From: Escherichia coli
Lineage (GTDB): Bacteria; Pseudomonadota; Gammaproteobacteria; Enterobacterales; Enterobacteriaceae
NCBI RefSeq assembly: GCF_030013205.1
Contig: NZ_CP122648.1
Direction: 5' to 3' (one strand)
DNA: 64,000 nucleotides
Shown: positions 516 through 41,754 of the stretch, one piece after another
How positions within the stretch are numbered: position 1 is the stretch's first letter
Layout: each line of letters starts with the position of its first letter
Position numbers and translations under genes: made by a program
Notes under the pieces: model-generated
The model's database searches: none
What the model saw: the letters and a program-made list of their open reading frames with translations, nothing else
What the model was told of the DNA's origin: nothing

Positions 516-545
516 GCCCCGGCCATCATGACCGGGGCTTTTTAC
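516..545 (+). terminator. Rho-independent terminator after autotransporter gene
   Basis: GC hairpin ccccgg/ccgggg followed by T-run. Confidence 0.5.
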
Positions 546-786: not shown

Positions 787-820
787 TTTATACCGCTAAC
801 TCATTCATAAGGAGCAAATC

Positions 821-1639: not shown

Positions 1640-1730
1640 TGCTGTTTCCCTGAAAGTGCAGCCCTGACTCACGTCTGTACCAGTCCCCAGGCATTCTTCC
1701 ATTCATTTGCTTTTTATAAGGAATAATCTC

Positions 1731-2216: not shown

Positions 2217-2230
2217 GCCGGAGAAGCACA

Positions 2231-2707: not shown

Positions 2708-2775
2708 CCCGTCACCGTCACAACCACATCACACCTGTTTTCACTTTTATCTTCTGTCTTCAGAGGTATCCCACC

Positions 2776-2997
2776 ATGAAAATTATCACCCGTGGTGAAG
2801 CCATGCGCATTCACCGTCAGCATCCGGCATCCCGTCTTTTTCCGTTCTGCACCGGTAAGTACCGCTGGCACGGCAGCACTGAGGCATATACCGGTCGTGA
2901 AGTGCAGGATATTCCCGGTGTGCTGGCCGTGTTTGCTGAACGCCGTAAGGACAGTTTTGGCCCGTATGTCCGGCTGATGAGTGTAACCCTGAACTGA
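2776..2997 (+). CDS. YeeT/YkfH/YpjJ-family small protein (DUF987)
   Basis: 73-aa ORF MKIITRGEAMRIH... near-identical in my recollection to K-12 YeeT. Confidence 0.7.
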   Translation: MKIITRGEAMRIHRQHPASRLFPFCTGKYRWHGSTEAYTGREVQDIPGVLAVFAERRKDSFGPYVRLMSVTLN

Positions 2998-3015
2998 GTC
3001 AGGAAGGGAATTCTG

Positions 3016-3660
3016 ATGAGCAGAATTATCACCACCACCGTGTATACGCTGGATGAACTTTCCTGCCCGGCACGGGAAAAAGCCCGCGACGGGTACCGTC
3101 AGCATCATGCTGACAGCAACTGGTATGAAAACGTGTATGAAGACTTCAGGGAGGTCTGTGACATTTTCGGGATTAACCTCCGCCAGCGTGTTATCCGGCT
3201 CAGCAGTGGCAGGTTTATGGAAGAGCCGTGCATCTGGTTCAGCGGATTCTGCAGCCAGGGGGACGGAGCCTGTTTTGAAGGACGCTGGCACTGGCAGTCA
3301 GCAACAGCCAGGAGAATCCGGGAGTATGCCCCACAGGACCGTGAAATTCATCGTATCGCGGATGCCCTGCAGTCGGTACAGAAGCGTAACTTCTGGCAGT
3401 TACAGGCTGAAATCAGTCACCGGGGACGTTACTGCCATCCGTACAGCATGGATATCACCGTCACCCGGAACAGTCCGACTGGTCAGGTAATGACAACCGA
3501 TGCGGAAGCCGCTGTCAGCGAAGCCCTGCGCGACCTGGCCTTCTGGTTGTACCGTCAGCTGGAAAACGAGTACGACTGGCTGACCTCAGACGCCGCTGTG
3601 GATGAGGCCCTTCTCATCAACGAATACACCTTCACCGAAGCCGGTCTGCGCGCCGGCTGA
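3016..3660 (+). CDS. Hypothetical Cys/His-rich 214-aa protein, unassigned
   Basis: Clean ORF with RBS aggaagg 8 nt upstream of ATG; sits between yeeT-like and cbeA-like genes where K-12 clusters have no gene (recall). Confidence 0.5.
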   Translation: MSRIITTTVYTLDELSCPAREKARDGYRQHHADSNWYENVYEDFREVCDIFGINLRQRVIRLSSGRFMEEPCIWFSGFCSQGDGACFEGRWHWQSATARRIREYAPQDREIHRIADALQSVQKRNFWQLQAEISHRGRYCHPYSMDITVTRNSPTGQVMTTDAEAAVSEALRDLAFWLYRQLENEYDWLTSDAAVDEALLINEYTFTEAGLRAG

Positions 3661-3709
3661 CTCGTCATCGTTAAACTATCATTCACCGATTTTCTGTGAG
3701 GATTTTATC

Positions 3710-4078
3710 GTGTCAGACACACTCCATGAAACAAATTATCCCGACGACAACAACGACCGCTCCTGGTGGGGGCTACCCTGCACCGTGACGCCCTGTTTCA
3801 GGGCACGTCTGGTGCAGGAAGGGAACCGGTTGCATTACCTTGCAGACCGTGCCGGTATCAGAGGCCGGTTCAGCGACGCGGATGCGTACCATCTGGACCA
3901 GGCCTTTCCGCTGCTGATGAAACAACTGGAACTCATGCTCACCAGCGGTGAACTCAGTCCCCGCCATCAGCATACCGTCACGCTGTATGCAAAAGGGCTG
4001 ACCTGCGAAGCCGACACCCTCGGCAGTTGTGGCTACGTTTATATGGCTGTTTATCCGACGCCCGAAACGAAAAAGTAA
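3710..4078 (+). CDS. Type IV antitoxin, CbeA/YeeU/YfjZ/YafW family
   Basis: 122 codons from GTG 3710; translation closely matches K-12 CbeA (WWGLPCTVTPCF..., LYAKGLTC...) from memory. Confidence 0.75.
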   Translation: MSDTLHETNYPDDNNDRSWWGLPCTVTPCFRARLVQEGNRLHYLADRAGIRGRFSDADAYHLDQAFPLLMKQLELMLTSGELSPRHQHTVTLYAKGLTCEADTLGSCGYVYMAVYPTPETKK

Positions 4079-4167
4079 ATAATCAGAATAACCTTCTGCT
4101 CCGGCCAGGTGCTTTCACCACACCACTTTCCCATTTCTCATCTCTGCATATCAGGAAAATCTTCAGT

Positions 4168-4545
4168 ATGAAAACATTACCTGTATTACCCGGGCAGGCG
4201 GCCGGTTTACGCCCGTCTCCGGTTGAAATCTGGCAGACACTGCTTACCAGACTGCTGGACCAGCATTACGGCCTCACGCTGAATGACACGCCGTTTGCCG
4301 ATGAACGTGTGATTGAGCAGCATATTGAGGCAGGCATATCACTGTGTGATGCGGTGAACTTTCTCGTGGAAAAATACGCGCTGGTGCGTACCGACAAGCC
4401 GGGATTCAACGCCTGTACCCACTCTCAGTTAATAAACAGCATCGATATCCTCCGGGCCCGCCGGGCAACAGGCCTGATGACCCGCGACAATTACAGAACG
4501 GTGAACAATATCACCCGGGGTAAACATTCGGAGGCGAAACGATGA
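4168..4545 (+). CDS. Type IV toxin, CbtA/YeeV/YkfI/YpjF family (cytoskeleton inhibitor)
   Basis: MKTLPVLPGQAA... matches K-12 CbtA N-terminus and length (about 125 aa); directly downstream of the antitoxin. Confidence 0.75.
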   Translation: MKTLPVLPGQAAGLRPSPVEIWQTLLTRLLDQHYGLTLNDTPFADERVIEQHIEAGISLCDAVNFLVEKYALVRTDKPGFNACTHSQLINSIDILRARRATGLMTRDNYRTVNNITRGKHSEAKR

Positions 4546-5030
4546 AACTGACCCTGACACTGGAAGCCGACAGTATTAATGTGCAGGCACTGAACATGGA
4601 GCGAATTGTTGTTGACGTCGATGGTATTGAGCTCGCTGAACTGATTAATAAGGTCGCTGAAAACGGTTATTCACTCCGCGTGGTGGATGCTCCCGAACAG
4701 CAGACAACGGATTCTCCACCATCGTTTACGGCCCTTACCGGCATACGCTGCAGTACCGCACATATCACGGAAAAGGATAACGCCTGGCTGTACTCGCTGT
4801 CACACCAGACCAGTGACTTCGGTGAATCAGAATGGATTCATTTCACAGGTAGCGGATATCTGTTACGTACCGATGCGTGGTCATATCCGGTTCTGCGGCT
4901 TAAACGCCTGGGGCTGTCAAAAACGTTCCGTCGTCTGGTTGTCACACTCATCCAACGTTATGGCGTCAGTCTCATTCATCTGGATGCCAGCGCTGAATGT
5001 CTGCCGGACCTGCCCACTTTCGACTGGTAA
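4542..5030 (+). CDS. YeeW-like protein downstream of the toxin
   Basis: 162-aa ORF whose ATG overlaps the cbtA stop (ATGA); same position as yeeW in CP4-44-type clusters. Confidence 0.5.
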   Translation: MKLTLTLEADSINVQALNMERIVVDVDGIELAELINKVAENGYSLRVVDAPEQQTTDSPPSFTALTGIRCSTAHITEKDNAWLYSLSHQTSDFGESEWIHFTGSGYLLRTDAWSYPVLRLKRLGLSKTFRRLVVTLIQRYGVSLIHLDASAECLPDLPTFDW

Positions 5031-5041
5031 CCAGGAACAAC

Positions 5042-5239
5042 ATGAAATCATTAACCACAGAAACCGCACTGGATATTCTGATTGCGTGGCTACAAGACAA
5101 TATCGACTGCGAATCGGGAATTATCTTTGACAACGATGAGGATAGAACGGATTCGGCAGCACTGTTGCCCTGTATCGAACAGGCCAGAGAGGATGTCCGT
5201 ACCCTGCGTCAGCTGCAGTTTCTGCAACAGAACCGGTGA
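5042..5239 (+). CDS. Small acidic hypothetical protein (65 aa)
   Basis: ATG at 5042 preceded by aggaac; followed by a terminator. Confidence 0.35.
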   Translation: MKSLTTETALDILIAWLQDNIDCESGIIFDNDEDRTDSAALLPCIEQAREDVRTLRQLQFLQQNR

Positions 5240-5267
5240 GTCTTACTCACCAGACTTCATTCCACTG

Positions 5268-5300
5268 ACGCCAGCCTGAATACGGCTGGCGTTTTCGTTT
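5268..5300 (+). terminator. Rho-independent terminator
   Basis: acgccagcc / ggctggcgt hairpin followed by ttttcgttt. Confidence 0.5.
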
Positions 5301-5323
5301 ATCTGCAAAAAGGAATATCGATT

Positions 5324-6166
5324 ATGTCTGAAATCACAGCCTCTCGTCCGGAAGTGGTCAACGGGCATACGGACGTTATCTGCTCAACCAGTATCCGCCA
5401 CATTCTGGCTGTACGAAAGAGTACATTGCTGCAAATCGACACACTTATCCGGCAACTGGCTGAAATATCAGCAATGACAGAAAGTATTGGAGGTAAAACG
5501 GCTCTGGACTGGGCCATGAAACAGGATTTTCGCTGCGGTTGCTGGCTGATGGAGAAACCGGAAACCGCAATGAAAGCCATCACACGCAATCTTGATCGCG
5601 AACTCTGGCGTGATCTGATGCAACGTTCCGGGTTGCTGAGTCTGATGGATGCGCAGACCCGGGACACATGGTACAGGTCACTGGAATATGATAATTTTCC
5701 GGAAATCAGCGAAGCGAACATTCTGAGCACATTTGAACAACTGCACCAGAACAAAGATGAAGTGTTTGAACGGGGAGTGATCAACGTCTTCAAAGGGCTG
5801 AGCTGGGATTACAAAACCAACTCACCCTGTAAATTTGGCAGTAAAATTATCGTCAACAATCTGGTGAGGTGGGACCAGTGGGGATTTCATCTTATCAGTG
5901 GAATGCAGGCAGATCGCCTGGCTGACCTGGAAAGAATGTTGCATCTGCTCAGCGGTAAACCGATCCCCGACAACCGGGGGAATATCACCATTAATCTGGA
6001 TGACCACATACAGTCCGTTCAGGGTAAAGGACGCTATGAAGATGAGATGTTCATCATTAAATACTTTAAGAAGGGATCTGCACACATCACTTTCAAAAGG
6101 CTGGAGCTGATTGACAGAATTAACGATATAATAGCTAGGCACTTTCCTTCTGTGCTCTCAGCCTGA
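5324..6166 (+). CDS. Hypothetical 280-aa island protein (possibly DUF4942-like)
   Basis: ORF with RBS aaaggaa; last gene before the att repeat; family assignment is from memory only. Confidence 0.45.
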   Translation: MSEITASRPEVVNGHTDVICSTSIRHILAVRKSTLLQIDTLIRQLAEISAMTESIGGKTALDWAMKQDFRCGCWLMEKPETAMKAITRNLDRELWRDLMQRSGLLSLMDAQTRDTWYRSLEYDNFPEISEANILSTFEQLHQNKDEVFERGVINVFKGLSWDYKTNSPCKFGSKIIVNNLVRWDQWGFHLISGMQADRLADLERMLHLLSGKPIPDNRGNITINLDDHIQSVQGKGRYEDEMFIIKYFKKGSAHITFKRLELIDRINDIIARHFPSVLSA

Positions 6167-23291: not shown

Positions 23292-23942
23292 ATGACCCGC
23301 ACACTCAAGCCGTTAATTCTTAACACCGGCGCACTGGCGCTAACGTTAATCCTGATTTATACCGGCATTTCGGCCCGTGACAAACTCACCTGGCTGATGG
23401 AAGTGACACCGGTGATTATTGTCGTGCCGCTACTGCTTGCCACCGCTAAACGTTATCCGTTAACGCCGCTGCTCTATACGCTCATTTTCTTTCACGCCAT
23501 CATCCTGATGGTCGGCGGACAATACACCTACGCGAAAGTCCCCGTTGGTTTTGAGGTGCAGGAATGGCTGGGGTTGAGCCGTAATCCGTATGACAAACTG
23601 GGGCATTTTTTCCAGGGGCTGGTGCCTGCACTGGTGGCACGAGAGATCCTTGTGCGCGGGATGTACGTTCGCGGACATAAGATGGTGGTGTTTCTGGTCT
23701 GCTGCGTGGCGCTGGCGATAAGCGCGATGTATGAATTAATCGAGTGGTGGGCGGCGCTGGCAATGGGCCAGGGAGCGGATGATTTTCTCGGCACCCAGGG
23801 CGACCAGTGGGACACGCAATCCGATATGTTCTGCGCGCTGCTTGGCGCATTAACGACGGTGATATTCCTCGCTCGCTTTCATTGCCGCCAGCTACGGCGC
23901 TTTGGCTTAATCACCAGAGCGCCGGAAGCGATTACCCCTTAA
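23292..23942 (+). CDS. yjdF: Inner membrane protein YjdF, with a C-terminal tail that may differ from K-12
   Basis: 216-codon ORF; I recall K-12 YjdF as 209 aa; stop codon overlaps melA stop. Confidence 0.8.
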   Translation: MTRTLKPLILNTGALALTLILIYTGISARDKLTWLMEVTPVIIVVPLLLATAKRYPLTPLLYTLIFFHAIILMVGGQYTYAKVPVGFEVQEWLGLSRNPYDKLGHFFQGLVPALVAREILVRGMYVRGHKMVVFLVCCVALAISAMYELIEWWAALAMGQGADDFLGTQGDQWDTQSDMFCALLGALTTVIFLARFHCRQLRRFGLITRAPEAITP

Positions 23943-25294
23943 CGGTGCAACCAGCCAGGCAGCCAGTCGCCGTGGGCAGCAATCAAGTCGTCAACAAGAG
24001 CATATATTTCGTCAATGCCCAGCACGGCGGCAGTATGCGGGTCCATCATCGCGGCGTGGTAAACACGGTCGCGATTTTCCGTAAGAATGGCTTCGGTCAG
24101 CAGCGTCTGTACGTTGATGTTGGTTTGCATCAGGGCGGCCAGATGCGAAGGTAGCGTACCGACTTTGGTCGGCTGAATGCCATTAGCATCAACCAGACAG
24201 GCCACTTCCACACAACATCCTTGTGGCAGGTTATCAATCAATCCATCGTTACGGACGTTGCCGTAAATCACACTCGGCTCGCCAGTCCAGATAGCGTTCA
24301 TGATTGTGCTGGCATATTCCCGTGACGGTTTAATATCAATCCGGGAGGCGTTTTTATACTCCTCCAGCTCTTTATGCCAGTTCGCCAGCTGCTCGACGCA
24401 GCGTTTCGGGTACTCATCCAGCGGTACTTTATAACGCTCAATCAAATCCTCACGACCTGGCTTAATAAACCACGGTGTGTACTCAGCAAAATGTTCTGAC
24501 GATTCCGTGACGAAGTAGCCCAGCTTTTTGAACATTTCGTAGCGCACAATATTCTGGCAGCGAGTATTGCCATGAATATTCGGCTTCGGTGCCTGCCCTG
24601 CTTCATAAGCCGCCAGCAGTTCCGGGTAGAGATTCACGTAACTGCCGTCGGCGGTTTTGCGCTCCAGTTCCAGGTAAAACGCCATATGGTTGATACCTGC
24701 ACAACGGTAACGCAGCGTAGACGGGTCGATATTGAGGTCACGCGCCAGCTCTTCCGCCGTTCCCTGCACCGAATGGCACAGCCCTACCTGTTTGATATGC
24801 GGATAGCGGGCATACATCGCCCAGGTATTCATCGCCATTGGGTTAACATAGTTGAGCATGGTGGCATCGGGGCAGACTTCCGTCATGTCCTCGCAAATTT
24901 GCCACAGATGCGGAATGGTACGTAGCGCGCGCATAATACCGCCCGGCCCCAACGTATCGGCAATGGTTTGTTCCAGACCATGCCGCTTACAGACCTCGAA
25001 ATCAGTCACCGTGCAAGGTTCATAACCGCCAATCTGAAATGCCACCACGACAAAATCAGCATCCTGTAAGGCTTCTTTCTGTTGGGTGTGGCAGGTGATT
25101 TTGCCGCTGGCCCCTGCTGAATCCATCAGCTTACGCACCACAATGTGCGACTCTTCCAGGCGGGTGGGATCAATGTCCATCAGGGCAATATGCGCCGTTT
25201 TCAGCGCCTCGCGATGGAACACATCACCAAGAATATTTTTAACGAAAATCGTCGAACCAGCGCCGATAAATGTAATTTTGGGTGCAGACATCAT
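23939..25294 (-). CDS. melA: Alpha-galactosidase (melibiase)
   Basis: 451 aa MMSAPKITFIGAGS... ending GWLHR; NAD-binding GxGS motif. Confidence 0.95.
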   Translation of the reverse strand: MMSAPKITFIGAGSTIFVKNILGDVFHREALKTAHIALMDIDPTRLEESHIVVRKLMDSAGASGKITCHTQQKEALQDADFVVVAFQIGGYEPCTVTDFEVCKRHGLEQTIADTLGPGGIMRALRTIPHLWQICEDMTEVCPDATMLNYVNPMAMNTWAMYARYPHIKQVGLCHSVQGTAEELARDLNIDPSTLRYRCAGINHMAFYLELERKTADGSYVNLYPELLAAYEAGQAPKPNIHGNTRCQNIVRYEMFKKLGYFVTESSEHFAEYTPWFIKPGREDLIERYKVPLDEYPKRCVEQLANWHKELEEYKNASRIDIKPSREYASTIMNAIWTGEPSVIYGNVRNDGLIDNLPQGCCVEVACLVDANGIQPTKVGTLPSHLAALMQTNINVQTLLTEAILTENRDRVYHAAMMDPHTAAVLGIDEIYALVDDLIAAHGDWLPGWLHR

Positions 25295-29286: not shown

Positions 29287-30048
29287 ATGAGGATTTGCAG
29301 CGACCAACCTTGTATTGTTTTATTGACTGAAAAAGATGTCTGGATAAGGGTGAATGGGAAAGAACCTATTAGCCTTAAAGCTAACCATATGGCGTTATTA
29401 AATTGTGAAAATAATATTATCGACGTCTCCTCTCTTAATAACACTTTGGTTGCTCATATTAGTCACGACATCATCAAAGATTACCTCCGGTTTCTGAATA
29501 AAGATCTCTCGCAAATACCAGTATGGCAACGTAGCGCTACGCCCATCCTCACTCTGCCATGCCTGACGCCAGACGTCTTTCGCGTTGCCGCGCAACACAG
29601 CATGATGCCCGCTGAAACTGAGTCAGAAAAGGAACGAACACGTGCATTATTATTCACTGTGCTATCCCGTTTTCTCGACAGTAAAAAATTCCTTTCACTA
29701 ATGATGTATATGTTACGTAATTGTGTAAGTGACAGCGTTTATCAAATTATTGAAAGCGATATCCACAAAGACTGGAATCTTAGTATGGTAGCCAGTTGTT
29801 TATGTCTTAGCCCGAGTCTGTTAAAGAAAAAGCTGAAAAGCGAAAACACCAGTTATAGCCAAATAATCACCACCTGCCGCATGCGTTATGCCGTAAATGA
29901 ATTAATGATGGACGGTAAAAATATCTCTCAGGTATCACAGTCCTGCGGCTACAACAGTACGTCGTACTTTATTTCTGTCTTTAAAGACTTCTACGGTATG
30001 ACGCCTCTGCATTATGTTAGTCAGCACAGAGAACGCACTGTCGCCTGA
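29287..30048 (+). CDS. adiY: AraC-family regulator of the adi system
   Basis: 253 aa; C-terminal AraC HTH. Confidence 0.9.
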   Translation: MRICSDQPCIVLLTEKDVWIRVNGKEPISLKANHMALLNCENNIIDVSSLNNTLVAHISHDIIKDYLRFLNKDLSQIPVWQRSATPILTLPCLTPDVFRVAAQHSMMPAETESEKERTRALLFTVLSRFLDSKKFLSLMMYMLRNCVSDSVYQIIESDIHKDWNLSMVASCLCLSPSLLKKKLKSENTSYSQIITTCRMRYAVNELMMDGKNISQVSQSCGYNSTSYFISVFKDFYGMTPLHYVSQHRERTVA

Positions 30049-30184
30049 TTTTTAACCTTAACGAAGAGCTATATTAATAACGGCATCAGCGATAACCTGG
30101 TCGATAATAATTCAACTATCGAATGCAGGCGTATGATATGACGTAATTTATTGTCACGAAGCTCGCCTTCGCAGGAGTTTAATT

Positions 30185-31522
30185 ATGTCTTCGGATGCTG
30201 ATGCTCACAAAGTGGGCTTAATCCCCGTCACCCTGATGGTGTCGGGGAATATTATGGGGTCAGGTGTTTTTCTGTTACCTGCAAACCTGGCCTCCACTGG
30301 CGGGATTGCCATTTATGGATGGTTGGTGACGATTATCGGTGCGCTGGGGCTCTCGATGGTATACGCCAAAATGTCGTTCCTCGACCCAAGTCCTGGTGGT
30401 TCTTACGCTTACGCCCGCCGCTGCTTTGGCCCGTTTCTCGGTTATCAAACCAACGTCCTCTATTGGCTGGCCTGCTGGATCGGCAATATCGCCATGGTGG
30501 TCATTGGCGTAGGTTATTTAAGTTACTTCTTCCCGATTCTGAAAGATCCATTGGTATTAACCATCACCTGCGTCGTGGTGCTGTGGATCTTCGTCCTGCT
30601 GAATATTGTCGGTCCGAAAATGATCACCCGCGTGCAGGCCGTTGCCACCGTGCTGGCGCTGATCCCCATCGTCGGGATTGCCGTATTTGGCTGGTTCTGG
30701 TTCCGTGGTGAAACCTATATGGCGGCATGGAACGTCAGCGGCCTGGGCACCTTCGGCGCGATTCAAAGTACCCTTAACGTTACGCTGTGGTCGTTCATCG
30801 GTGTGGAAAGTGCCTCCGTTGCCGCAGGTGTGGTGAAAAACCCGAAACGCAACGTCCCTATAGCCACCATTGGTGGGGTATTGATTGCCGCCGTTTGCTA
30901 TGTGCTCTCCACCACCGCGATTATGGGGATGATCCCTAATGCCGCACTGCGCGTTTCTGCCTCGCCATTCGGTGATGCCGCACGGATGGCGTTGGGTGAC
31001 ACCGCCGGGGCCATTGTTTCCTTCTGCGCAGCTGCGGGTTGCTTAGGTTCACTGGGCGGCTGGACATTGCTGGCGGGTCAAACGGCGAAAGCCGCTGCCG
31101 ATGACGGACTGTTCCCACCAATTTTTGCCCGTGTTAATAAAGCGGGTACACCAGTGGCGGGGCTGATTATCGTCGGTATTTTGATGACCATCTTCCAGCT
31201 CAGCAGCATTTCACCAAACGCGACCAAAGAGTTCGGTCTGGTTTCTTCCGTCTCGGTCATCTTTACACTGGTGCCATATCTTTACACCTGTGCGGCGTTA
31301 CTGCTGCTCGGCCACGGTCACTTTGGTAAAGCACGCCCGGCATATCTGGCAGTTACTACCATTGCCTTCCTCTACTGCATCTGGGCCGTGGTGGGGTCCG
31401 GGGCGAAAGAGGTTATGTGGTCATTTGTCACCCTGATGGTCATCACCGCCATGTATGCGCTGAATTACAACCGGCTGCATAAAAACCCGTATCCCTTAGA
31501 TGCACCAATAAGCAAAGATTAA
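30185..31522 (+). CDS. adiC: Arginine/agmatine antiporter
   Basis: 445 aa APC family; paralogue of cadB. Confidence 0.95.
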
Positions 31523-31545
31523 TTCCCCTTAATCCAGCAAACATA

Positions 31546-31587
31546 AAAGCCAACCTTAAGAACTTAAGGTTGGCTTAATTTTGCTTT
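31546..31587 (+). terminator. Terminator after adiC
   Basis: aaagccaaccttaag / cttaaggttggcttt stem then aattttgcttt. Confidence 0.65.
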
Positions 31588-31625
31588 GCGAGCATATGCG
31601 CACTTTGTTCGATGGAAACACCGTG

Positions 31626-33269
31626 ATGTTGAAGCGCCTACTAAAAAGACCCTCTTTGAATTTACTCGCCTGGCTATTGTTGGCCGCTTTTTATATCTCT
31701 ATCTGCCTGAATATTGCCTTTTTTAAACAGGTGTTACAGGCGCTGCCGCTGGACTCGCTGCATAACGTACTGGTTTTCTTGTCGATGCCGGTCGTCGCTT
31801 TCAGCGTGATTAATATTGTCCTGACACTAAGCTCTTTCTTATGGCTTAATCGACCGCTGGCCTGCCTGTTTATTCTGGTCGGCGCGGCTGCACAATATTT
31901 CATAATGACTTACGGCATCGTCATCGACCGCTCGATGATTGCCAATATTATTGATACCACTCCGGCAGAAAGTTATGCGTTGATGACGCCACAAATGTTA
32001 TTAACGCTGGGATTCAGCGGCGTGCTTGCTGCGCTGATTGCCTGCTGGATTAAAATCAAACCTGCCGCCTCGCGCCTGCGCAGTGTTCTTTTCCGTGGAG
32101 CCAATATTCTGGTTTCTGTACTGCTGATTTTGCTGGTCGCCGCACTGTTTTATAAAGACTACGCCTCATTGTTCCGCAACAACAAAGAGCTGGTGAAGTC
32201 CTTAAGCCCCTCTAATAGCATTGTTGCCAGCTGGTCATGGTACTCCCATCAGCGACTGGCAAATCTGCCGCTGGTGCGAATTGGAGAAGACGCGCACCGC
32301 AACCCATTAATGCAGAACGAGACACGTAAAAATTTGACCATCCTGATTGTCGGCGAAACCTCGCGGGCGGAGAACTTCTCCCTCAACGGCTACCCGCGTG
32401 AAACTAACCCGCGGTTGGCGAAAGATAACGTGGTCTATTTCCCTAATACCGCATCTTGCGGCACGGCAACGGCAGTTTCAGTACCGTGCATGTTCTCGGA
32501 TATGCCGCGTGAGCACTACAAAGAAGAGCTGGCACAGCACCAGGAAGGCGTGCTGGATATCATTCAGCGAGCGGGCATCAACGTGCTGTGGAATGACAAC
32601 GATGGCGGCTGTAAAGGTGCCTGCGACCGCGTGCCTCACCAGAACGTCACCGCGCTGAATCTGCCTGGTCAGTGCATCAACGGCGAATGCTATGACGAAG
32701 TGCTGTTTCACGGGCTGGAAGAGTACATCAATAACCTGCAGGGTGATGGCGTGATTGTCTTACACACCATCGGCAGCCACGGTCCGACCTATTACAACCG
32801 CTATCCGCCGCAGTTCAGGAAATTTACCCCTACCTGCGACACTAACGAGATCCAGACCTGTACCAAAGAGCAACTGGTGAACACTTACGACAACACGTTG
32901 GTTTACGTCGACTATATTGTTGATAAAGCGATTAATCTGCTGAAAGAACATCAGGATAAATTCACCACCAGCCTGGTTTATCTTTCTGACCACGGTGAGT
33001 CGTTAGGTGAAAATGGCATCTATCTGCACGGTCTGCCTTATGCCATCGCCCCGGATAGCCAAAAACAGGTACCAATGCTGCTGTGGCTGTCGGAGGATTA
33101 TCAAAAACGGTATCAGGTTGACCAGAACTGCCTGCAAAAACAGGCGCAAACGCAACACTATTCACAAGATAATTTATTCTCCACGCTATTGGGATTAACT
33201 GGCGTTGAGACGAAGTATTACCAGGCTGCGGATGATATTCTGCAAACTTGCAGGAGAGTGAGTGAATGA
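31626..33269 (+). CDS. eptA: Lipid A phosphoethanolamine transferase
   Basis: 547 aa from [12 protein letters not shown]; N-terminal transmembrane region plus sulfatase-like domain. Confidence 0.95.
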
Positions 33270-33934
33270 AAATTCTGATTGTTGAAGACGATACGCTGTT
33301 ATTGCAGGGATTGATTCTGGCGGCGCAAACCGAAGGCTACGCGTGCGATGGCGTGACAACCGCGCGGATGGCGGAACAAAGCCTTGAGGCCGGTCATTAC
33401 AGCCTGGTGGTACTGGATTTAGGGTTACCCGACGAAGATGGACTGCATTTTCTCGCCCGTATCCGGCAGAAAAAATACACCCTGCCGGTACTGATCCTCA
33501 CCGCTCGCGATACGCTGACCGACAAAATCGCCGGGCTGGATGTCGGTGCCGATGACTATCTGGTGAAGCCTTTTGCGCTGGAAGAGTTACACGCCCGTAT
33601 CCGCGCCCTGCTACGACGCCATAATAATCAGGGCGAAAGTGAGCTGATTGTTGGCAATCTGACGCTGAATATGGGTCGCCGTCAGGTATGGATGGGCGGT
33701 GAAGAGTTGATTCTGACGCCCAAAGAATATGCTCTGCTGTCACGGTTAATGCTCAAAGCAGGCAGTCCGGTGCATCGGGAAATTCTCTACAACGACATCT
33801 ATAACTGGGACAATGAACCCTCGACTAACACCCTGGAAGTGCATATCCACAATCTGCGCGACAAAGTGGGCAAAGCCCGTATCCGCACCGTGCGCGGATT
33901 TGGCTATATGCTGGTCGCGAATGAGGAAAACTAA
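33266..33934 (+). CDS. basR: Response regulator BasR (PmrA)
   Basis: 222 aa OmpR-family; overlaps eptA stop. Confidence 0.95.
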
Positions 33935-33943
33935 TTGAATCTG

Positions 33944-35035
33944 ATGCGTTTTCTGCGCCGACCAATATCGCTGCGCCAACGGCTGATATTGACCATTGGG
34001 GCCATTTTGTTGGTGTTTGAGCTGATCAGCGTCTTCTGGCTATGGCATGAAAGTACCGAGCAGATTCAGCTGTTTGAGCAGGCGCTACGCGACAATCGCA
34101 ACAACGATCGCCACATCATGCGTGAGATCCGCGAGGCGGTCGCCAGCCTGATCGTCCCCGGCGTCTTTATGGTCAGCCTGACGCTATTTATCTGCTATCA
34201 GGCGGTACGCCGCATCACCCGCCCGCTGGCGGAGCTGCAAAAAGAGCTGGAAGCGCGCACCGCCGACAACTTAACGCCCATTGCCATTCACAGCGCCACC
34301 CTCGAAATCGAAGCGGTGGTTTCGGCGTTAAACGATCTGGTCAGTCGCCTGACCAACACGCTGGATAACGAAAGGTTGTTTACCGCTGACGTCGCGCACG
34401 AACTGCGAACGCCACTGGCGGGGGTGCGTTTGCATCTGGAACTGCTGGCGAAAACGCATCACATTGATGTAGCACCGTTAGTGGCACGGCTTGATCAGAT
34501 GATGGAGAGCGTCTCCCAGCTGCTGCAACTGGCGCGTGCCGGACAGTCATTTTCTTCCGGTAATTATCAACATGTAAAACTGCTGGAAGATGTCATTCTC
34601 CCCTCGTATGACGAACTCAGTACCATGCTCGACCAGCGACAGCAAACCCTGCTATTGCCAGAGAGCGCCGCCGACATCACCGTTCAGGGTGATGCAACCC
34701 TGCTGCGGATGTTATTGCGAAACCTGGTAGAAAACGCCCATCGTTACAGCCCGCAAGGCAGCAACATTATGATTAAGCTGCAAGAAGATGGCGGAGCGGT
34801 CATGGCTGTTGAAGATGAAGGACCGGGTATTGATGAGAGTAAATGCGGGGAGTTGAGTAAAGCATTTGTACGTATGGACAGCCGTTATGGCGGGATTGGT
34901 CTGGGGTTAAGTATTGTCAGCCGCATTACACAGTTGCATCACGGGCAGTTTTTCCTGCAAAACCGGCAAGAGACTTCCGGCACGCGGGCCTGGGTACGGC
35001 TGAAGAAAGATCAGTACGTGGCAAACCAGATATAA
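33944..35035 (+). CDS. basS: Sensor kinase BasS (PmrB)
   Basis: About 363 aa; H-box ELRTPLA; ATG at 33944 (ORF track starts at TTG 33935). Confidence 0.9.
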   Translation: MRFLRRPISLRQRLILTIGAILLVFELISVFWLWHESTEQIQLFEQALRDNRNNDRHIMREIREAVASLIVPGVFMVSLTLFICYQAVRRITRPLAELQKELEARTADNLTPIAIHSATLEIEAVVSALNDLVSRLTNTLDNERLFTADVAHELRTPLAGVRLHLELLAKTHHIDVAPLVARLDQMMESVSQLLQLARAGQSFSSGNYQHVKLLEDVILPSYDELSTMLDQRQQTLLLPESAADITVQGDATLLRMLLRNLVENAHRYSPQGSNIMIKLQEDGGAVMAVEDEGPGIDESKCGELSKAFVRMDSRYGGIGLGLSIVSRITQLHHGQFFLQNRQETSGTRAWVRLKKDQYVANQI

Positions 35036-35100
35036 AGAAAGCTGCTGACCACCAGCACGCTGAACACGGTAGTTAAACTTTCATAAACACGGTTTTTCAT
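35011..35100 (-). CDS. pmrR: PmrR small membrane peptide (29 aa)
   Basis: Not in ORF track; reverse complement gives MKNRVYESLTTVFSVLVVSSFLYIWFATY; 3' end overlaps basS 3' end on the opposite strand. Confidence 0.75.
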   Translation of the reverse strand: MKNRVYESLTTVFSVLVVSSFLYIWFATY

Positions 35101-35103
35101 TGC

Positions 35104-35130
35104 ACTCTCCTCCGTTAACCTGGAGGAGAG
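35104..35130. terminator. Hairpin between convergent basS and proP
   Basis: ctctcctcc / ggaggagag stem. Confidence 0.45.
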
Positions 35131-35211
35131 TATGCGCGTCAGAGATTAAGTGAACCTTAAGACTTCAATTGGCCTGATAAGACAGCGTCACATCAGGCCA
35201 TCCGTTTCAGC

Positions 35212-36714
35212 TTATTCATCAATTCGCGGATGTTGCTGCACCAGGCGAGTACGTTTCGCCTGCAAATCGGCAATCTCGTGGTCAATATCATCGATTTTCT
35301 GCTCGATATTATCGTAATGCTCGACGAGAATTTCCTTCGCTTCCTGTATATCTGACGCCGCCGGTGTCGCACCTTTCAACGGACGATTCGCCGTCTCTTT
35401 CATGGTTACGCCGGTGATTAAACCAACCACCGCCACTACCATCAGGTAATAGGCAGGCATCATCAAATTCTGCGAGCTTTCGACCAGCCAGGCCGCCAGC
35501 GTTGGCGTCAGACCGGCAACCAGCACCGAAATATTAAATGCCGCCGCCAGCGCGCTGTAACGGATATGCGTCGGGAACATCGCTGGCAAGGTAGAGGCCA
35601 TAACGCCCGTAAAGCAGTTAAGGATCACCGCCAGCATCAGTAACCCGGCAAAAATCAGGCCGATGACGTTACTGTTAATCAGAATAAACGCCGGGATCGC
35701 CAACACAAACAGTGCAACACTACCAAGTAGCACAAACGGACGACGGCCAAAACGGTCACTCAGCAAGCCCATCACCGGCTGGACAAACAGCATACCGATC
35801 ATAATGGCGATAATAATCAGCACCCCGTGGTCTTCGGAGTAATGCAGGTTATGCGACAAATAACTCGGCATATAGGTCAGCAACATGTAGTAAGTCACGT
35901 TGGTGGCAATTACCAGACCAATACATGTCAACAGGCTGCGCCAGTATTTAGTGGCAATCTCTTTAAACGAGACTTTCGGGCCATCCTGCAAACCTTCGCG
36001 GTCGCCCTGCTCCAGTTTATCAACATGCTGCTGGAACGCCGGAGTCTCTTCCAGCGCATGGCGCAGGTAAAGCCCGATAATCCCTAACGGCAGAGCAATA
36101 AAGAACGGAATACGCCAGCCCCAGTCGAGGAAGTTCGCTTCGCCGACAATGGTCGAAATTAACACCACCACGCCCGCACCCAGCACAAACCCGGCAATAG
36201 AACCGAAGTCCAGCCAGCTGCCCATAAAGCCACGTTTACGGTCAGGGGAGTATTCCGCAACAAATATCGACGCCCCGGTATATTCACCGCCGACCGAGAA
36301 ACCTTGTGCCATCTTACAGATCAACAGCAGAATCGGTGCCCAAATACCAATCGTGTCGTAGGACGGTATTAAGCCAATACAGAACGTACTGATCGACATA
36401 ATCACAATAGTGATAGCGAGGATCTTCTGGCGACCATATTTATCGCCCAACATACCAAAGAAGAGTCCACCAAGCGGTCGAATCAGAAAGGGAACGGAGA
36501 AAGTGGCAAGTGCAGCAACCATCTGCACGCTGGGGTCAGCCCCCGGGAAAAAAACTTTACCTAATGCGTAAGCAACAAAACCATAAACACCAAAATCGAA
36601 CCATTCCATTGCATTACCCAGTGATGCTGCGGTAATGGCTTTACGCAGTTTACCGTCATCAATAATAGTGACATCACGAAGGGTAATTGGTTTTACTTTT
36701 TTCCTTTTCAGCAT
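35212..36714 (-). CDS. proP: Proline/glycine betaine osmoprotectant symporter
   Basis: 500 aa from MLKRKKVKPITL; MFS with C-terminal coiled coil. Confidence 0.95.
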   Translation of the reverse strand: MLKRKKVKPITLRDVTIIDDGKLRKAITAASLGNAMEWFDFGVYGFVAYALGKVFFPGADPSVQMVAALATFSVPFLIRPLGGLFFGMLGDKYGRQKILAITIVIMSISTFCIGLIPSYDTIGIWAPILLLICKMAQGFSVGGEYTGASIFVAEYSPDRKRGFMGSWLDFGSIAGFVLGAGVVVLISTIVGEANFLDWGWRIPFFIALPLGIIGLYLRHALEETPAFQQHVDKLEQGDREGLQDGPKVSFKEIATKYWRSLLTCIGLVIATNVTYYMLLTYMPSYLSHNLHYSEDHGVLIIIAIMIGMLFVQPVMGLLSDRFGRRPFVLLGSVALFVLAIPAFILINSNVIGLIFAGLLMLAVILNCFTGVMASTLPAMFPTHIRYSALAAAFNISVLVAGLTPTLAAWLVESSQNLMMPAYYLMVVAVVGLITGVTMKETANRPLKGATPAASDIQEAKEILVEHYDNIEQKIDDIDHEIADLQAKRTRLVQQHPRIDE

Positions 36715-36977
36715 AGCTTTCCTCGCAGAGTTGGCCCATTTCCGCAAACGCCAGAAAAATCAGCGCGACGGCCGCAAAAGGGGAGCGGGAATTGCAGGAT
36801 GCAATCTCTGTAACAAGCGTAGCGGGTTTGCTTACACCCTCCGGTTAAGGAATGTACAATCAAACCAGTTGACGCCTGAATTGGGCAGTTAATGACCTTT
36901 TTACCCTACCAGTGTTTAAATTTGTGATCAACTTCACACATGGATTTCGTTTAGGACTCATTGATGTAACTGATTAT

Positions 36978-37856
36978 TTACACCAAATTTACAGAGAAGA
37001 TTTCCTCGACCATTGCCCCCGCCAGACGCTGCGCTGAACAGAGTCGTGGCATCCCCAGCGCGACAGTTTGCCAGCGTTGGGTCACTGACCAGCAAACGGG
37101 TTGTTTATCTGCCGTGGTCCACTTTCCCAGCCAACTTAAAAAATCAGCATGATCCCCGCCCGTCGGAATGGTCGAAGAGGCAAACCACTGATGGTAATAG
37201 TGACGCGTGGTCGGTGCCGCATTGATACTCTCTGCCAGATGTTGTGTCGCTTTCTCGCGCAAATCACCCAGCAACAACGCCACCGCTTGCGGGCTTCCCA
37301 GACGGCAGGCATCGCCAAATGCCCCCCAGCGCAACTCCTCCAGAACGATAAAACAGCGCCCAGGCAACGACCAGGCGTTATACGCCCCAGCACGCCAGCG
37401 GGTAAAAATTTGCTCGCTCTGATCACCTGCCTGCACCAGTAGGCCTCGTTGCGTTAACGCCTTTTCCTTCCAGCGACAACGGGCTGAAAACCACTCATAC
37501 AAGGCGGCAATTTGCTGGGGGAGCTCCGGGAAAGCAGAGTGCTGGCGGTGATCCATTTTTTGCAGCAGCGCCAGATGTTGCGCGATCTGCGTCAGCGCCA
37601 GATGACCGGGATCCAGCATCGACGCCAGTTTTTCCACCAATGTCAGACGCAGGCTAAGCGGCGCATTTAACATCCCGCCGTTCGTCCATGCCTGAAGCTG
37701 CACACGCGCAAGAAGTTCCTGCATCAGTCGTTCACGAAACTGCTGCTGATGGGCTTGTGGATGGCGGGCATCATCGCCCTGCGCCAGATCCACTAAAAAG
37801 CGCGGATGAACCGACTCCAGCACGCGACCGGGGCCGTCCAGTAACGTCTTGATCAA
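36978..37856 (-). CDS. yjcZ: YjcZ
   Basis: 292 aa; start overlaps crfC stop. Confidence 0.85.
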   Translation of the reverse strand: MIKTLLDGPGRVLESVHPRFLVDLAQGDDARHPQAHQQQFRERLMQELLARVQLQAWTNGGMLNAPLSLRLTLVEKLASMLDPGHLALTQIAQHLALLQKMDHRQHSAFPELPQQIAALYEWFSARCRWKEKALTQRGLLVQAGDQSEQIFTRWRAGAYNAWSLPGRCFIVLEELRWGAFGDACRLGSPQAVALLLGDLREKATQHLAESINAAPTTRHYYHQWFASSTIPTGGDHADFLSWLGKWTTADKQPVCWSVTQRWQTVALGMPRLCSAQRLAGAMVEEIFSVNLV

Positions 37857-40081
37857 TATCGTTCTGCCGTGAAAAGTGTTTGAATATCATCGCGTAACAG
37901 CTGAGCGTCGATGTAAATCCAGCTGTGAGTCATCACAGCCTGCTGCAATTGCTGCTGCATCAGCCTGACCACCGATTCATTTTGTTGACGCAGAGCCAGG
38001 CTTTCGCGTAAACGCGTCTGTAATTCCGTCAAACATGAAGCGAACTCAGCGAAAAAAGTATTCATGCCTGCCGTAACAGATTCATCGACCTGCTCTGCCA
38101 AAACTTTAGCCATTTGTTGGCAATAAAGATCGACTTCTGCGCTTAATGCTCGTTGCAACACACTGTAATCAACCGTCTCTGTCGGGGATTTCTCATTTCC
38201 CCGTCCCCAGTCGGGCTGATTCAACCAGCGCGAAAAAGTCTCACGCACAACGCCTAAACGCGTGCTCTGCTCGTCCGTTGCTTCCTGGCGCGAAATGACT
38301 TCACTGAACAGCTGGCGAGTGTTGAAGTGGGGAACTGCGCCGTGAAAAACAGGAAAATGAAACCCAGGACGAAACCCTGACTCGCTCAATTCCATTTTGA
38401 TTTGTTGCTCAATGGGGCGAATAACATCGGTTAACACCCGGCAAAGGGTGGATTCCAGCTCGGCAAAACGCAGCGTAAAGTCGCGACTGATGGTGTTCTG
38501 CGCCGTCTGTAACAGTGTCTCACAGCGGGTACGAATCTCGCTTAACGGCTCCGAATCATCCTGAAACAAGGCGGCAAACTGCGCATTCAGCGCATCTTGC
38601 TGTTGACGCAGAAAGTGGTTGGCGGAGGTCAGGGCCAGCTCGATTTCATGTTTAATCTCGCCGCTCACCTGCGCCTGATTGAGTTGCAATAGCTGCAAAC
38701 TTTCTTCGACCTGATGGATATTTTGCCGCAATTGTTCACAAGCGACGTTTAACCCGTGCGCACGAAAATCCAGGTATTCCCGCGCCTGCTGCGCGTAATT
38801 CAACAGTTTATGCACGGCAGATCGCAGAGCATACAACGAGGCGTTAGCGTAAGCGGCATGAAGCAACGCCTGAATTGGCTGGGCGAACAGCGAATCTTCC
38901 CACAACTGATCGGCAGCATGACGAATATGTTCGAGGTCAGCCAGATCGGCATGACGCCAGCGCCTGCCGAGCGCGGCATGGGCAAAATCTTCCACCCAGC
39001 GTTGTTGCTCTGGCGGTGGTAACTTACCGTTGTTGGCTAACTCATGGCGCGCCCGATTCGCCAGGTAGCCCCACATCGACGACACCGGAAATATCTGCTG
39101 TGGCGTAATACAGCCTTTCATCAGCGTCCCGGAAATCAGTGCCCGCACCTGGTCGGCGTCGTCACTGTTACGATCCTGTTGATCGAACTTATTGACCAGC
39201 ACATACAGCGGCACCGATTGCCCCACCGCCAAAATCGCCTCACGGACCTCTTCATCGGAGATCGATTTCAGTTGCGTATAATCCAGCACCGCCAGTACCG
39301 CCGAGGCGCGTGCCAGCTGCTGGTTAAGCATTTTTTGCAGATGCGGTTGCCCGGCTTCATTTGGCCCGGGGGTATCCAGTAACGTCAATTGACCGGGATA
39401 ACTCTCCAGCCCCGCCAGATGGACAAACTCCACTTCAATCACGGGAATATGCTCAATGGCGGCGTAAGCAGAAAAAGGAAAATCGACGTCCAGCGCCTTC
39501 GCCAGTCGCACCAAATCATTCAAACTTTTCAGACAATGAAAAATAGGCTGGGCACCCAGATAATATTTTTCGAAAGCGACGCCATTTTCGATCCGCTGCA
39601 TAAGCGCACGCATATCTTTATCTATTTCCAGCACATCGGTCAGATGCTTAATATCGCAATCACGCAGGCGCTGTTGTAATTTTTGAATTAAACAATCGAT
39701 TGGCGCGACATGTGAAAAATGCAGTACCGGTTCCTTTTGCCCGGGCGTATGGCGAATAAGCGTCGGCAGCGCAGTCATTGGGCGATTACGATTAGGCAAA
39801 ACCTCCGTACCAACAATGGCATTAATGGTGGTTGATTTCCCTGCTTTCATGGTACCGACAATCGCCAGCACCATTTCCAGTCGGGAAATTTTACGCAACT
39901 CATTATTCAGCATCGCGTGACGTTCGGCGATATTAGGCTGACTCCAGGGTAAAGCCAGTTGTGGCGCATCGTCTCCGGGGACAGAGAGAGGCATTTTTTC
40001 CAGTAACTGCAACTGTTGGCGAGAAAGCTGTAACAGGCGTTCAGCCTCCTGACTTAACTCATACAGGGTCTGTGTGTACAT
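37853..40081 (-). CDS. crfC: Dynamin-like GTPase CrfC (YjdA)
   Basis: 742 aa from MYTQTLYELSQEAERL; P-loop GTMKAGKST; ORF track extension beyond 40081 runs into IS1 and is an artefact. Confidence 0.9.
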   Translation of the reverse strand: MYTQTLYELSQEAERLLQLSRQQLQLLEKMPLSVPGDDAPQLALPWSQPNIAERHAMLNNELRKISRLEMVLAIVGTMKAGKSTTINAIVGTEVLPNRNRPMTALPTLIRHTPGQKEPVLHFSHVAPIDCLIQKLQQRLRDCDIKHLTDVLEIDKDMRALMQRIENGVAFEKYYLGAQPIFHCLKSLNDLVRLAKALDVDFPFSAYAAIEHIPVIEVEFVHLAGLESYPGQLTLLDTPGPNEAGQPHLQKMLNQQLARASAVLAVLDYTQLKSISDEEVREAILAVGQSVPLYVLVNKFDQQDRNSDDADQVRALISGTLMKGCITPQQIFPVSSMWGYLANRARHELANNGKLPPPEQQRWVEDFAHAALGRRWRHADLADLEHIRHAADQLWEDSLFAQPIQALLHAAYANASLYALRSAVHKLLNYAQQAREYLDFRAHGLNVACEQLRQNIHQVEESLQLLQLNQAQVSGEIKHEIELALTSANHFLRQQQDALNAQFAALFQDDSEPLSEIRTRCETLLQTAQNTISRDFTLRFAELESTLCRVLTDVIRPIEQQIKMELSESGFRPGFHFPVFHGAVPHFNTRQLFSEVISRQEATDEQSTRLGVVRETFSRWLNQPDWGRGNEKSPTETVDYSVLQRALSAEVDLYCQQMAKVLAEQVDESVTAGMNTFFAEFASCLTELQTRLRESLALRQQNESVVRLMQQQLQQAVMTHSWIYIDAQLLRDDIQTLFTAERY

Positions 40082-40100
40082 AGAAAATTCTTCCTTAAAG

Positions 40101-40109
40101 CAAATTTTG
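40101..40109. repeat. Target-site duplication, left copy (caaattttg)
   Basis: Identical 9-mer immediately flanks both IS1 ends. Confidence 0.85.
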
Positions 40110-40164
40110 GGTGATGCTGCCAACTTACTGATTTAGTGTATGATGGTGTTTTTGAGGTGCTCCA

Positions 40165-40440
40165 GTGGCTTCTGTTTCTATCAGCTGTCCCTCCTGTTCA
40201 GCTACTGACGGGGTGGTGCGTAACGGCAAAAGCACCGCCGGACATCAGCGCTATCTCTGCTCTCACTGCCGTAAAACATGGCAACTACAGTTCACTTACG
40301 CCGCCTCTCAGCCCGGTACGCACCAGAAAATCATTGATATGGCCATGAATGGCGTCGGATGTCGCGCCAGTGCACGCATTATTGGCGTTGGCCTCAACAC
40401 GATTTTCCGCCACTTAAAAAACTCAGGCCGCAGTCGGTAA
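40165..40440 (+). CDS. insA: IS1 InsA
   Basis: 91 aa [23 protein letters not shown]... zinc-finger/HTH repressor. Confidence 0.95.
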
Positions 40441-40862
40441 CCTCGCGCATACAACCGGGCAGTGATGTGATTGTCTGCGCTGAAATGGACGAACAGTGGG
40501 GCTACGTCGGTGCTAAATCACGTCAGCGCTGGCTGTTTTACGCGTATGACAGGATGCGGAGGACGGTTGTGGCGCACGTCTTCGGTGAACGCACTCTGGC
40601 CACACTGGAGCGTCTTCTGAGCCTGCTGTCGGCCTTTGAGGTCGTGGTATGGATGACGGATGGCTGGCCGCTGTATGAATCACGCCTGAAGGGAAAGCTG
40701 CACGTTATCAGCAAGCGTTATACTCAGCGCATTGAGCGGCATAACCTGAATCTGAGACAACATCTGGCAAGGCTGGGACGGAAGTCACTGTCGTTCTCAA
40801 AATCGGTGGAGCTGCATGACAAGGTCATCGGGCATTATCTGAACATAAAACACTATCAGTAA
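40359..40862 (+). CDS. insB: IS1 insB frame; transposase InsAB' is made by -1 frameshift from insA
   Basis: 167-codon frame overlapping insA 3' end; slippery A6C at 40416-40422. Confidence 0.9.
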
Positions 40863-40877
40863 GTTGGAGTCATTACC

Positions 40878-40886
40878 CAAATTTTG
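40878..40886. repeat. Target-site duplication, right copy (caaattttg)
   Basis: See left copy. Confidence 0.85.
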
Positions 40887-41259
40887 TTACTTTTATTTAG
40901 CCAGATTGTTTTTGAGTTCTGTTTTCGGCTTTTATAATTACTGCAAGAAATAATTTTATATTTAGAGTGTTGTTTTTTATTAGAATAAATAACGTCTTCC
41001 GATACGTTTAAAACGTCAGAAAGATAAAAATATCATTTGAATTAAAAAAAGAACAAGTAGAGCATTAACCTTATCTTAAATAATAAATGGAGGCAAAAAG
41101 ATTATTTTCTTTTTGCGTTTCCTTTCAAATGAAAACGATCGTCGTCTAAAATCAGCAGTACCCCCGACAAACTCAGGGATTTTGTGTATAATTGCGGCCT
41201 TTTTCGGCAATCTGCCGTTTTTTGGCGCTTTTGCCCTGCTGACTTTTGAGGAAATCCAC

Positions 41260-41595
41260 ATGTCATTACCACACTGCCCAAAATGCAACTCCGAATACAC
41301 CTACGAAGATAACGGCATGTACATCTGCCCGGAATGTGCCTACGAATGGAACGACGCAGAACCTGCACAGGAAAGCGACGAGCTGATCGTTAAAGATGCT
41401 AACGGCAATCTGCTGGCTGACGGCGACAGCGTTACCATCATTAAAGATCTGAAGGTGAAAGGTAGCTCTTCGATGCTGAAAATTGGCACCAAAGTGAAAA
41501 ACATCCGCCTGGTTGAAGGCGACCATAACATCGATTGCAAAATCGACGGTTTTGGTCCGATGAAACTGAAATCTGAGTTTGTGAAAAAGAACTGA
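41260..41595 (+). CDS. yjdM: PhnA-family zinc-ribbon protein
   Basis: 111 aa from [13 protein letters not shown] with two CxxC pairs; longer ORF-track start rejected. Confidence 0.9.
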
Positions 41596-41609
41596 TTGTA
41601 TTGTGATCG

Positions 41610-41690
41610 GTAAGCCGGATAAGGCGCTCGCGCCGCATCCGGCAACGATGCCGACTGCCTGATGCGACGCTGACCGCGTCTTATCAGGCT
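41610..41690. repeat. REP/BIME-type extragenic palindromes
   Basis: gccggataaggcgctcgcgccgcatccggc and gcctgatgcgacgctgaccgcgtcttatcaggc. Confidence 0.7.
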
Positions 41691-41754
41691 TCCCTCTCAT
41701 CTGTATAAATTTCGAACTACACTTAACTGGCTTCTCTTAACTGAGGTCACCATC

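Follow-up and report, generated by a model that had tools for sequence, protein, structure and literature searches.

A complete IS1 element has inserted into the spacer between crfC (also called rdcA or yjdA) and yjdM in part of one porcine clone of Escherichia coli. The element stands just upstream of crfC, and it separates the gene from its native, H-NS-bound promoter region, with a fall in crfC transcription as the expected outcome. We give this reading as a whole (insertion within the clone, displacement of the promoter, and lowered crfC expression) a probability of roughly 0.7. The insertion in itself is ordinary: the element and its position are already in the RefSeq annotation, and the mechanism is textbook. 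RefSeq annotates it in 14 complete genomes, which makes it a routine mobile-element case for genome annotation.

The IS1 element and its neighborhood

The window (the whole 64-kb stretch of DNA analysed) is identical to the genome of strain K_EC180, and the gene coordinates were transferred from the RefSeq annotation of that genome base for base. In the window, crfC (37853-40081, minus strand) is an intact open reading frame of 742 codons, with its ATG at 40081 and a ribosome-binding site, AAGGAAG, at 40090-40096 (minus strand; -15 to -9 from the ATG). The gene downstream is yjcZ (rdcB; 36978-37856, minus strand). The divergent neighbor on the other side is yjdM (41260-41595, plus strand), beyond which lie yjdN and the phn operon. 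IS1 occupies 40110-40877, and thus lies between the two genes, as the sequence-only reading had placed it. The distance from the A of the crfC ATG to its first base is 29 nt, as given in that reading, and 28 nt (40082-40109) are left between element and gene. A promoter-like site for yjdM, CCGACA-17-TATAAT (41164-41192, plus strand), is intact between IS1 and yjdM. The crfC reading frame can be extended to a TTG at 40123, within the left inverted repeat, giving 756 instead of the annotated 742 amino acids. The extension (minus strand, 40082-40123) was rejected as an ORF-calling artefact of the insertion and is no evidence of a fusion protein.

Sequence reading together with a repeat finder defines the element as a 768-bp IS1 on the plus strand. 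Its terminal inverted repeats are imperfect and about 23 bp long. IRL (40110-40132; left end GGTGATGCTGCCAACTTACTGAT) faces crfC and is identical to the IRL of K-12 IS1A, and IRR (40855-40877; right end the reverse complement of GGTAATGACTCCAACTTACTGAT) faces yjdM and is one base off its K-12 IS1A counterpart. RefSeq places the transposase gene at 40165-40862 (plus strand) and labels it 'IS1 family transposase, programmed frameshift'. [quoted passage not shown] The slippery site is the A6C motif TTAAAAAAC (40414-40422, plus strand), where one A is re-read. The InsAB' fusion reconstructed across this site has 232 aa and is open throughout. It matches the equivalog profile NF033558 of NCBIfam, 'IS1 family transposase', at 242.8 bits (cutoff, 100 bits) over the full profile length (1-199/199). 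With the ends, insA, insB' and the A6C site all intact, the element is complete, as had been claimed. A standard promoter scan also reports CTGCCA-16-TATGAT (40117-40144, plus strand) inside IRL, reading into insA, which from its position we take to be IS1's own pIRL promoter.

This is the only IS1 copy in the 64-kb window. When compared with three K-12 isoforms, the nearest is IS1F (96.0% identity, 31 mismatches), followed by IS1A (93.4%, 51 mismatches) and IS1D (93.2%, 52 mismatches); the differences from IS1A are confined to element positions 178-750. The PGAP name goes no further than 'IS1 family'. Elsewhere in the window (~23292-25294), melA (23939-25294, minus strand) and yjdF (23292-23942, plus strand) converge, with a 4-bp overlap of their 3' ends; melB, which lies between these two genes in K-12, appears to be missing from this clone.

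Target duplication and the empty site

Both ends of IS1 abut the 9-mer CAAATTTTG. The left copy (40101-40109) represents the ancestral target and spans -20 to -28 from the crfC ATG, and the right copy (40878-40886) adjoins the IRR end. The two are identical, 777 nt apart, and each is flush against one end of the element. The word itself is not rare, occurring three times in 64 kb when about 1.45 occurrences are expected, and the chance of finding it exactly at both IS1 ends is about 4e-6 (for a fixed position). Because the 9-mer alone is common, the evidence for a target duplication is carried by its exact abutment to the IS1 ends and by the existence of real empty sites.

Empty sites are abundant. 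In K-12, the crfC-yjdM spacer is 400 bp long and has a single CAAATTTTG at the matching place. An empty site of 424 nt, reconstructed from the window, is uninterrupted in 5329 of the 5426 complete E. coli genomes, and in several of these it is 100% identical. The closest relatives without IS1 were sought with a flank-only query (window 30000-40109), since a 22-kb query across IS1 is unfit for ranking empty-site relatives, the loss of coverage outweighing identity. Four swine isolates outside the IS1-bearing set, three from Japan (EC556, EC571 and EC581) and one from Denmark (CFSAN018748), have a left flank that is 100% identical to the window or has one mismatch. The empty site was examined in two of the four, EC556 and CFSAN018748, whose left flanks (10.1 kb) are 100% identical to that of the window. 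Both agree at every base with an empty site reconstructed over 400 nt, with one CAAATTTTG in a plain 401-bp spacer, and in both the CrfC accession of the window clone, WP_063086381.1, is also annotated. EC556 differs from the window by one mismatch in 4224 nt of flank.

Judged from these sequences, the event is a simple, recent and lineage-specific transposition. The sequence-only reading had deduced a simple transposition from a perfect 9-bp direct repeat, and both parts of that claim are borne out, the repeat by the identity of the two 9-mers and the transposition by the exact empty sites in K-12, EC556 and CFSAN018748. The comparison with island-free references that it had proposed turned up the single-copy site; the site is plain and no island is involved, and IS1 is absent from almost all references. 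The 'island' that it had in mind is probably a cluster beside cadC (window 462-6165), which is unrelated to the IS1 site. This island-like cluster has genes for a GTPase family protein and an Ag43/Cah autotransporter adhesin, together with DUF5983, DUF957 and DUF4942 gene fragments, some of them pseudogenes.

IS1 is also known for adjacent deletions and cointegrates, the clone has many copies of the element, and the unrelated genome EC488 shows a rearranged IS1 in the same region. The element in the window might accordingly be viewed as the scar of a rearrangement (inversion, deletion or resolved cointegrate) or as one end of a composite transposon. However, the 9-bp duplication is perfect, the window has only one IS1, the gene order proP-yjcZ-crfC-yjdM-yjdN-phn is conserved, and the flanks are colinear to the base with K-12 and with the near-isogenic empty sites. 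Because the empty sites of K-12 and of the sister strains match, the rearrangement reading is excluded for all practical purposes.

Distribution of the insertion and of the isoform

The left junction was searched for with a query of 120 nt of flank and 120 nt of IS1, to be matched in one piece. Of 5426 complete E. coli genomes, 14 have it: K_EC180, W13-16, P15-25, ETEC1701, ETEC1748, ETEC4067-4071, ETEC4075, ETEC4079 and ETEC6333/6334. These all come from swine or wild boar, and over 22 kb each of them is ~100% identical to the window. The two serotyped carriers, W13-16 and P15-25, are edema-disease STEC of type O139:H1 ST1 (PMC8798679). The insertion marks a subset of one porcine clone and splits the porcine O139:H1 ST1-type strains into IS1-bearing and empty-site groups. 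Since near-identical sister strains keep the empty site, the insertion can be placed within this edema-disease clone, where it would have arisen. It is at least not strongly deleterious, since 14 genomes from several countries have kept it. The literature search turned up no paper dealing with it.

The clone has IS1 in ~12-24 places per chromosome. Copies that are 100% identical to the window element over 768 bp are concentrated on the chromosomes and virulence plasmids of porcine ETEC and STEC, and most E. coli IS1 copies match it at only 90-99% identity. One identical copy is on NZ_CP080237.1, a 54,694-bp plasmid of W13-16, which is the F18/haemolysin plasmid pW1316-2 (PMC8798679). These results suggest that one IS1 isoform is expanding within pig-associated lineages, and spread from plasmid to chromosome is a plausible route. 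The intact features of the window copy, and identical copies at many sites in relatives, also suggest recent activity of the element.

The displaced crfC promoter region

The native upstream region of crfC (40887-41259, minus strand) is AT-rich, with about 32-40% GC, and is now displaced 777 bp from the gene. The crfC promoter must lie in this region because the 28 nt that remain next to the gene, half of them ribosome-binding site and spacer, hold no promoter and leader. The standard scan reports only one sigma-70-like site directed toward crfC here, TTGAAA-16-AATAAT (41128-41101, minus strand). H-NS is a repressor of crfC that binds its promoter region, and crfC mRNA is markedly increased in Δhns (PMC6374313). 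The H-NS high-affinity motif TCGATAAATT has no match in the intergenic region when up to two mismatches are allowed, and no mapped native transcription start site of crfC was found in the literature. At ~333 nt from the crfC ATG on the upstream side, the region has a single perfect DnaA box, TTATACACA, and an Rfam scan of K-12 shows no known RNA elements between crfC and yjdM. On the far side of yjdM, the yjdM-yjdN spacer measures 159 bp in the window (41596-41754) as against 657 bp in K-12 (locus L002, 4243-4899); the K-12 spacer has two copies of naRNA4 (CssrE/REP-type; Rfam RF02564, 111 and 95 bits) that are missing here.

A FliA promoter upstream of crfC, which IS1 would have cut off, was considered and rejected. 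No convincing TAAAGTTT-N11-GCCGATAA is present in the intergenic DNA, and the sole FliA-like trace upstream of crfC is a -10-like box, GCCGAAAA (-71 to -64), whose -35 is poor. According to Fitzgerald et al., the earlier upstream prediction was wrong and the true promoter lies inside yjdA (PMC4183435). In K-12, ChIP-seq and RNA-seq place this FliA promoter within yjdA/crfC, from where it drives yjcZ (PMC4183435; also bioRxiv 10.1101/188474). In the window, the corresponding FliA (sigma-28) promoter, TAAAGTTTTGGCAGAGCAGGTCGATGAA, is in the 3' part of crfC (38081-38108, minus strand), with one mismatch to the K-12 motif. Its -35 is the consensus TAAAGTTT, as against TAAAGTTC in K-12. The motif, left untouched by IS1, predicts that yjcZ (rdcB) retains its own internal promoter and is not necessarily silenced. 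The claim that IS1 separates crfC-yjcZ from its native upstream region therefore stands for crfC, with the refinement that yjcZ is not fully cut off.

Expected effect on crfC expression

The course of events can be pictured as follows. IS1 transposed by cut and staggered join into the AT-rich crfC-yjdM spacer, duplicating CAAATTTTG. All DNA upstream of -28, with any promoter of crfC and its H-NS-bound regulatory sequence, was thereby moved 777 bp away, and a transcript begun there would reach crfC only after running through the 768 bp of IS1, antisense to insAB'. An IS1 insertion is polar in either orientation, as is known from the classical genetics of gal and lac. An intrinsic terminator was considered as the source of such polarity, and the crfC-directed strand of IS1 offers a weak hairpin only (z = -1.7, no T-run). 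Polarity would thus be Rho-dependent, there being no convincing intrinsic terminator on that strand. A strong fall in transcription of crfC (rdcA) would be predicted, with yjcZ (rdcB) still served by its internal FliA promoter, on account of which polarity would not silence the whole crfC-yjcZ unit, and yjdM by its own promoter. Some crfC mRNA could nonetheless come from low-level read-through or from a weak hybrid promoter. Altogether, a knock-down of crfC by IS1 is the probable outcome and is favored over activation.

The effect would bear on two processes. Acting together, RdcA and RdcB activate DgcE, a diguanylate cyclase by way of which they also turn on csgD, curli and cellulose (PMC6510439), and CrfC aids nucleoid equipartition (PMC6374313). 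If crfC is knocked down, one may speculate that matrix production is lower and chromosome partitioning mildly affected. The IS1-bearing and empty-site strains are natural near-isogenic pairs, suited to testing the loss of the crfC/rdcA promoter in a pathogen, with respect to both DgcE-dependent curli and cellulose and chromosome partitioning.

Another view is that the insertion is a neutral passenger, a clonal marker carried along by drift or hitch-hiking as IS1 expanded in this lineage, with crfC either adequately expressed by way of read-through or dispensable in the niche. The abundance of IS1 in the clone agrees with this view, as does the non-essentiality of crfC, of which deletion mutants have been made (PMC6374313; PMC6510439), and other lineages have IS1 in or upstream of crfC without obvious consequence. 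However, neutrality in fitness is compatible with a drop in expression, being a matter of selection and not of mechanism, and adequate read-through over IS1 is unlikely given the classical polarity. We consider the passenger view unlikely, although it is the strongest of the alternatives, and retain a knock-down of crfC as the preferred reading.

A candidate hybrid promoter at the junction

As an alternative to disruption of the crfC promoter, the sequence-only reading allowed that IS1 could supply an outward-reading one. IS1 hybrid promoters combine an outward -35 in the inverted repeat with a -10 in the flank, which must be correctly spaced (PMC8764528). On the crfC-directed strand the sequence reads ...GTAAGTTGGCAGCATCACC and then CAAAATTTGCTTTAAGGAAGAATTTTCTATG, with the junction between the two. 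The IRL facing crfC does have an outward -35, TTGGCA (40123-40118), matching in five of six positions. With a spacer of 18 nt, it is followed by TTTAAG (40099-40094), a -10 that matches in four of six, lacking A2 and T6, and is preceded by TG. This candidate, TTGGCA-18-TTTAAG (40094-40123, minus strand), is the sole crfC-directed one in a relaxed scan. Spacings of 16 and 17 nt give -10 matches of only one to two in six, and in the standard, stricter scan the minus strand has no promoter-like site either within IS1 or at the junction. The candidate -10 overlaps the crfC ribosome-binding site, and the predicted start is ~5-8 nt before the ATG, downstream of that site. From these features, the candidate is judged weak or non-functional.

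Were it functional, crfC would be activated by a promoter free of the H-NS-repressed native one and possibly under InsA control. IS1 inverted repeats can form strong hybrid promoters, as at afaA in ST131, acrEF and blaTEM (PMC8764528; PMC9330008), and the -35, the 18-nt spacer, the partial -10 and the TG before it, which makes an extended -10-like TGcTTTAAG, speak in favor of activation. But the two bases missing from the -10 are the most critical ones, the site escapes the stricter scan, and an mRNA starting downstream of AAGGAAG would be poorly translated. Further, InsA binds IRL, and InsA from the ~12-24 IS1 places per chromosome would tend to repress a promoter there. IS1 does not always activate its neighbors: in ST131 it raised transcription of afaA, lowered that of osmB, and left ugd unchanged (PMC8764528). 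We regard activation of crfC by a hybrid promoter as very unlikely. Of the two effects foreseen in the sequence-only reading, disruption of the crfC promoter is favored and the outward-reading promoter disfavored.

Recurrent insertion in the crfC-yjdM spacer

The insertion at -29 is not the only one near the 5' end of crfC. Junction searches identified other genomes with IS1 there, 13 in the same orientation and 8 in the opposite one. Most of these elements are in the crfC-yjdM spacer, and the copy in strain 4848 is just inside crfC. The IS1 ends and duplications were mapped in 17 of these genomes (loci L006-L022). In what follows, positions are counted from the crfC ATG to the first base of IS1, and an element is in the same orientation if its IRL faces crfC, like that of the window clone at -29.

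Closer to the gene than the window element are the insertions in PigCaeca_2 (-10; IS1X2) and NH-21 (-14), both in the opposite orientation. Farther upstream, IS1 is found at -69/-70 in EC596, ET846, TOE17 and M15 (same) and in TOK-001 and CX12/CX08 (opposite), at -112 in EC488 (same), at -139 in MEW and -162 in TW10573 (both opposite), at -228 in a group of four including 503829 and at -238 in NCCP 13717 (both same), at -264 in PRO_A-2576 (same) and PI7 (opposite, with the target offset by 1 bp), and at -290 in N921 (same). Ec-U1 likely shares the -264 site of PRO_A-2576, judging from an identical junction span. IS1 is also found inside crfC, ~50 nt into the gene in strain 4848 and deeper in 503829 and CX12.

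The sites at -69/-70 form a hot spot, CTGTTTTCG (window 40920-40928), which has been hit by at least four IS1 isoforms and in both orientations, the copies differing pairwise at up to 67-68 of 768 nt. As isoforms and orientations differ, the insertions at CTGTTTTCG must be independent. In total, 35 genomes have IS1 here when about 4 are expected, the expectation being a crude, uniform one (~10 IS1 per 5-Mb genome x 400 bp x 5426 genomes) and the genomes not being independent, with ~17 apparently independent events among them, spread over unrelated lineages. IS1 is described as preferring AT-rich DNA (Zerbib et al., 1985, as cited in PMC9330008), and the excess of hits fits such a preference. 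The recurrent hits in this H-NS-bound spacer would then be a further example of regional target preference of IS1.

The copy in EC488 (locus L006, 1653-2522) has a different structure. In place of an 8-9-bp duplication, a perfect direct duplication of 51 bp flanks it, beginning at CTGTTTTCG. The element itself has a chimeric look, differing from IS1B-like copies at 21 positions and from the window isoform at 32. These features fit recombination within IS1 between alleles that had the element at sites 42 bp apart.

Recurrence could also mean repeated selection in host-associated E. coli to lower or rewire the input of RdcA-RdcB, via DgcE and CsgD, into c-di-GMP and biofilm control, an interpretation that we find quite improbable. 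If it were true, the -29 insertion would be the edema-disease clone's version of that adaptation.

Comparison with known systems

In its structure, the window element follows the IS1 elements of K-12 (IS1A, IS1D and IS1F): it is 768 bp long, with 23-bp repeats and an insA/insB' pair joined by the A6C frameshift, and its target is a 9-bp duplication with C and G at the ends and an AT-rich core. It differs in being an isoform apart from these three, all mismatches being internal.

In its position, the element resembles the classical polar insertions in gal and lac. In these cases also IS1 stands between the promoter region and the coding sequence, and loss of downstream expression is expected. 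At crfC, however, the effect is predicted from the arrangement, and the second gene of the unit, yjcZ (rdcB), has an internal FliA promoter (PMC4183435).

The IS1 hybrid promoters offer a second comparison. The one at blaTEM reportedly goes back to Prentki and colleagues in 1986. As at blaTEM, acrEF and afaA, an outward -35 faces the gene at a short distance in the window. Unlike them, the window junction lacks an adequate, properly spaced -10, and transcription would start downstream of the ribosome-binding site. In this respect, the junction is closer to osmB and ugd of ST131, where IS1 is present without activation.

The recurrent hits have a parallel in the regulatory DNA of the H-NS-silenced bgl operon, which takes IS1 and IS5 insertions either way over ~200 bp of H-NS-bound sequence (PMC11043490). 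The crfC-yjdM spacer is likewise an AT-rich, H-NS-bound region of a few hundred bp, hit by IS1 repeatedly and in either orientation. But at bgl the activating insertions are upstream of an intact promoter, whereas the window element is downstream of any crfC promoter: with IS1 at -29 and the ribosome-binding site at -9 to -15, no complete promoter fits downstream of the element. Relief of H-NS silencing of the bgl type cannot help crfC for this reason. The two regions thus share the pattern of IS1 insertion and differ in where the element stands relative to the promoter.
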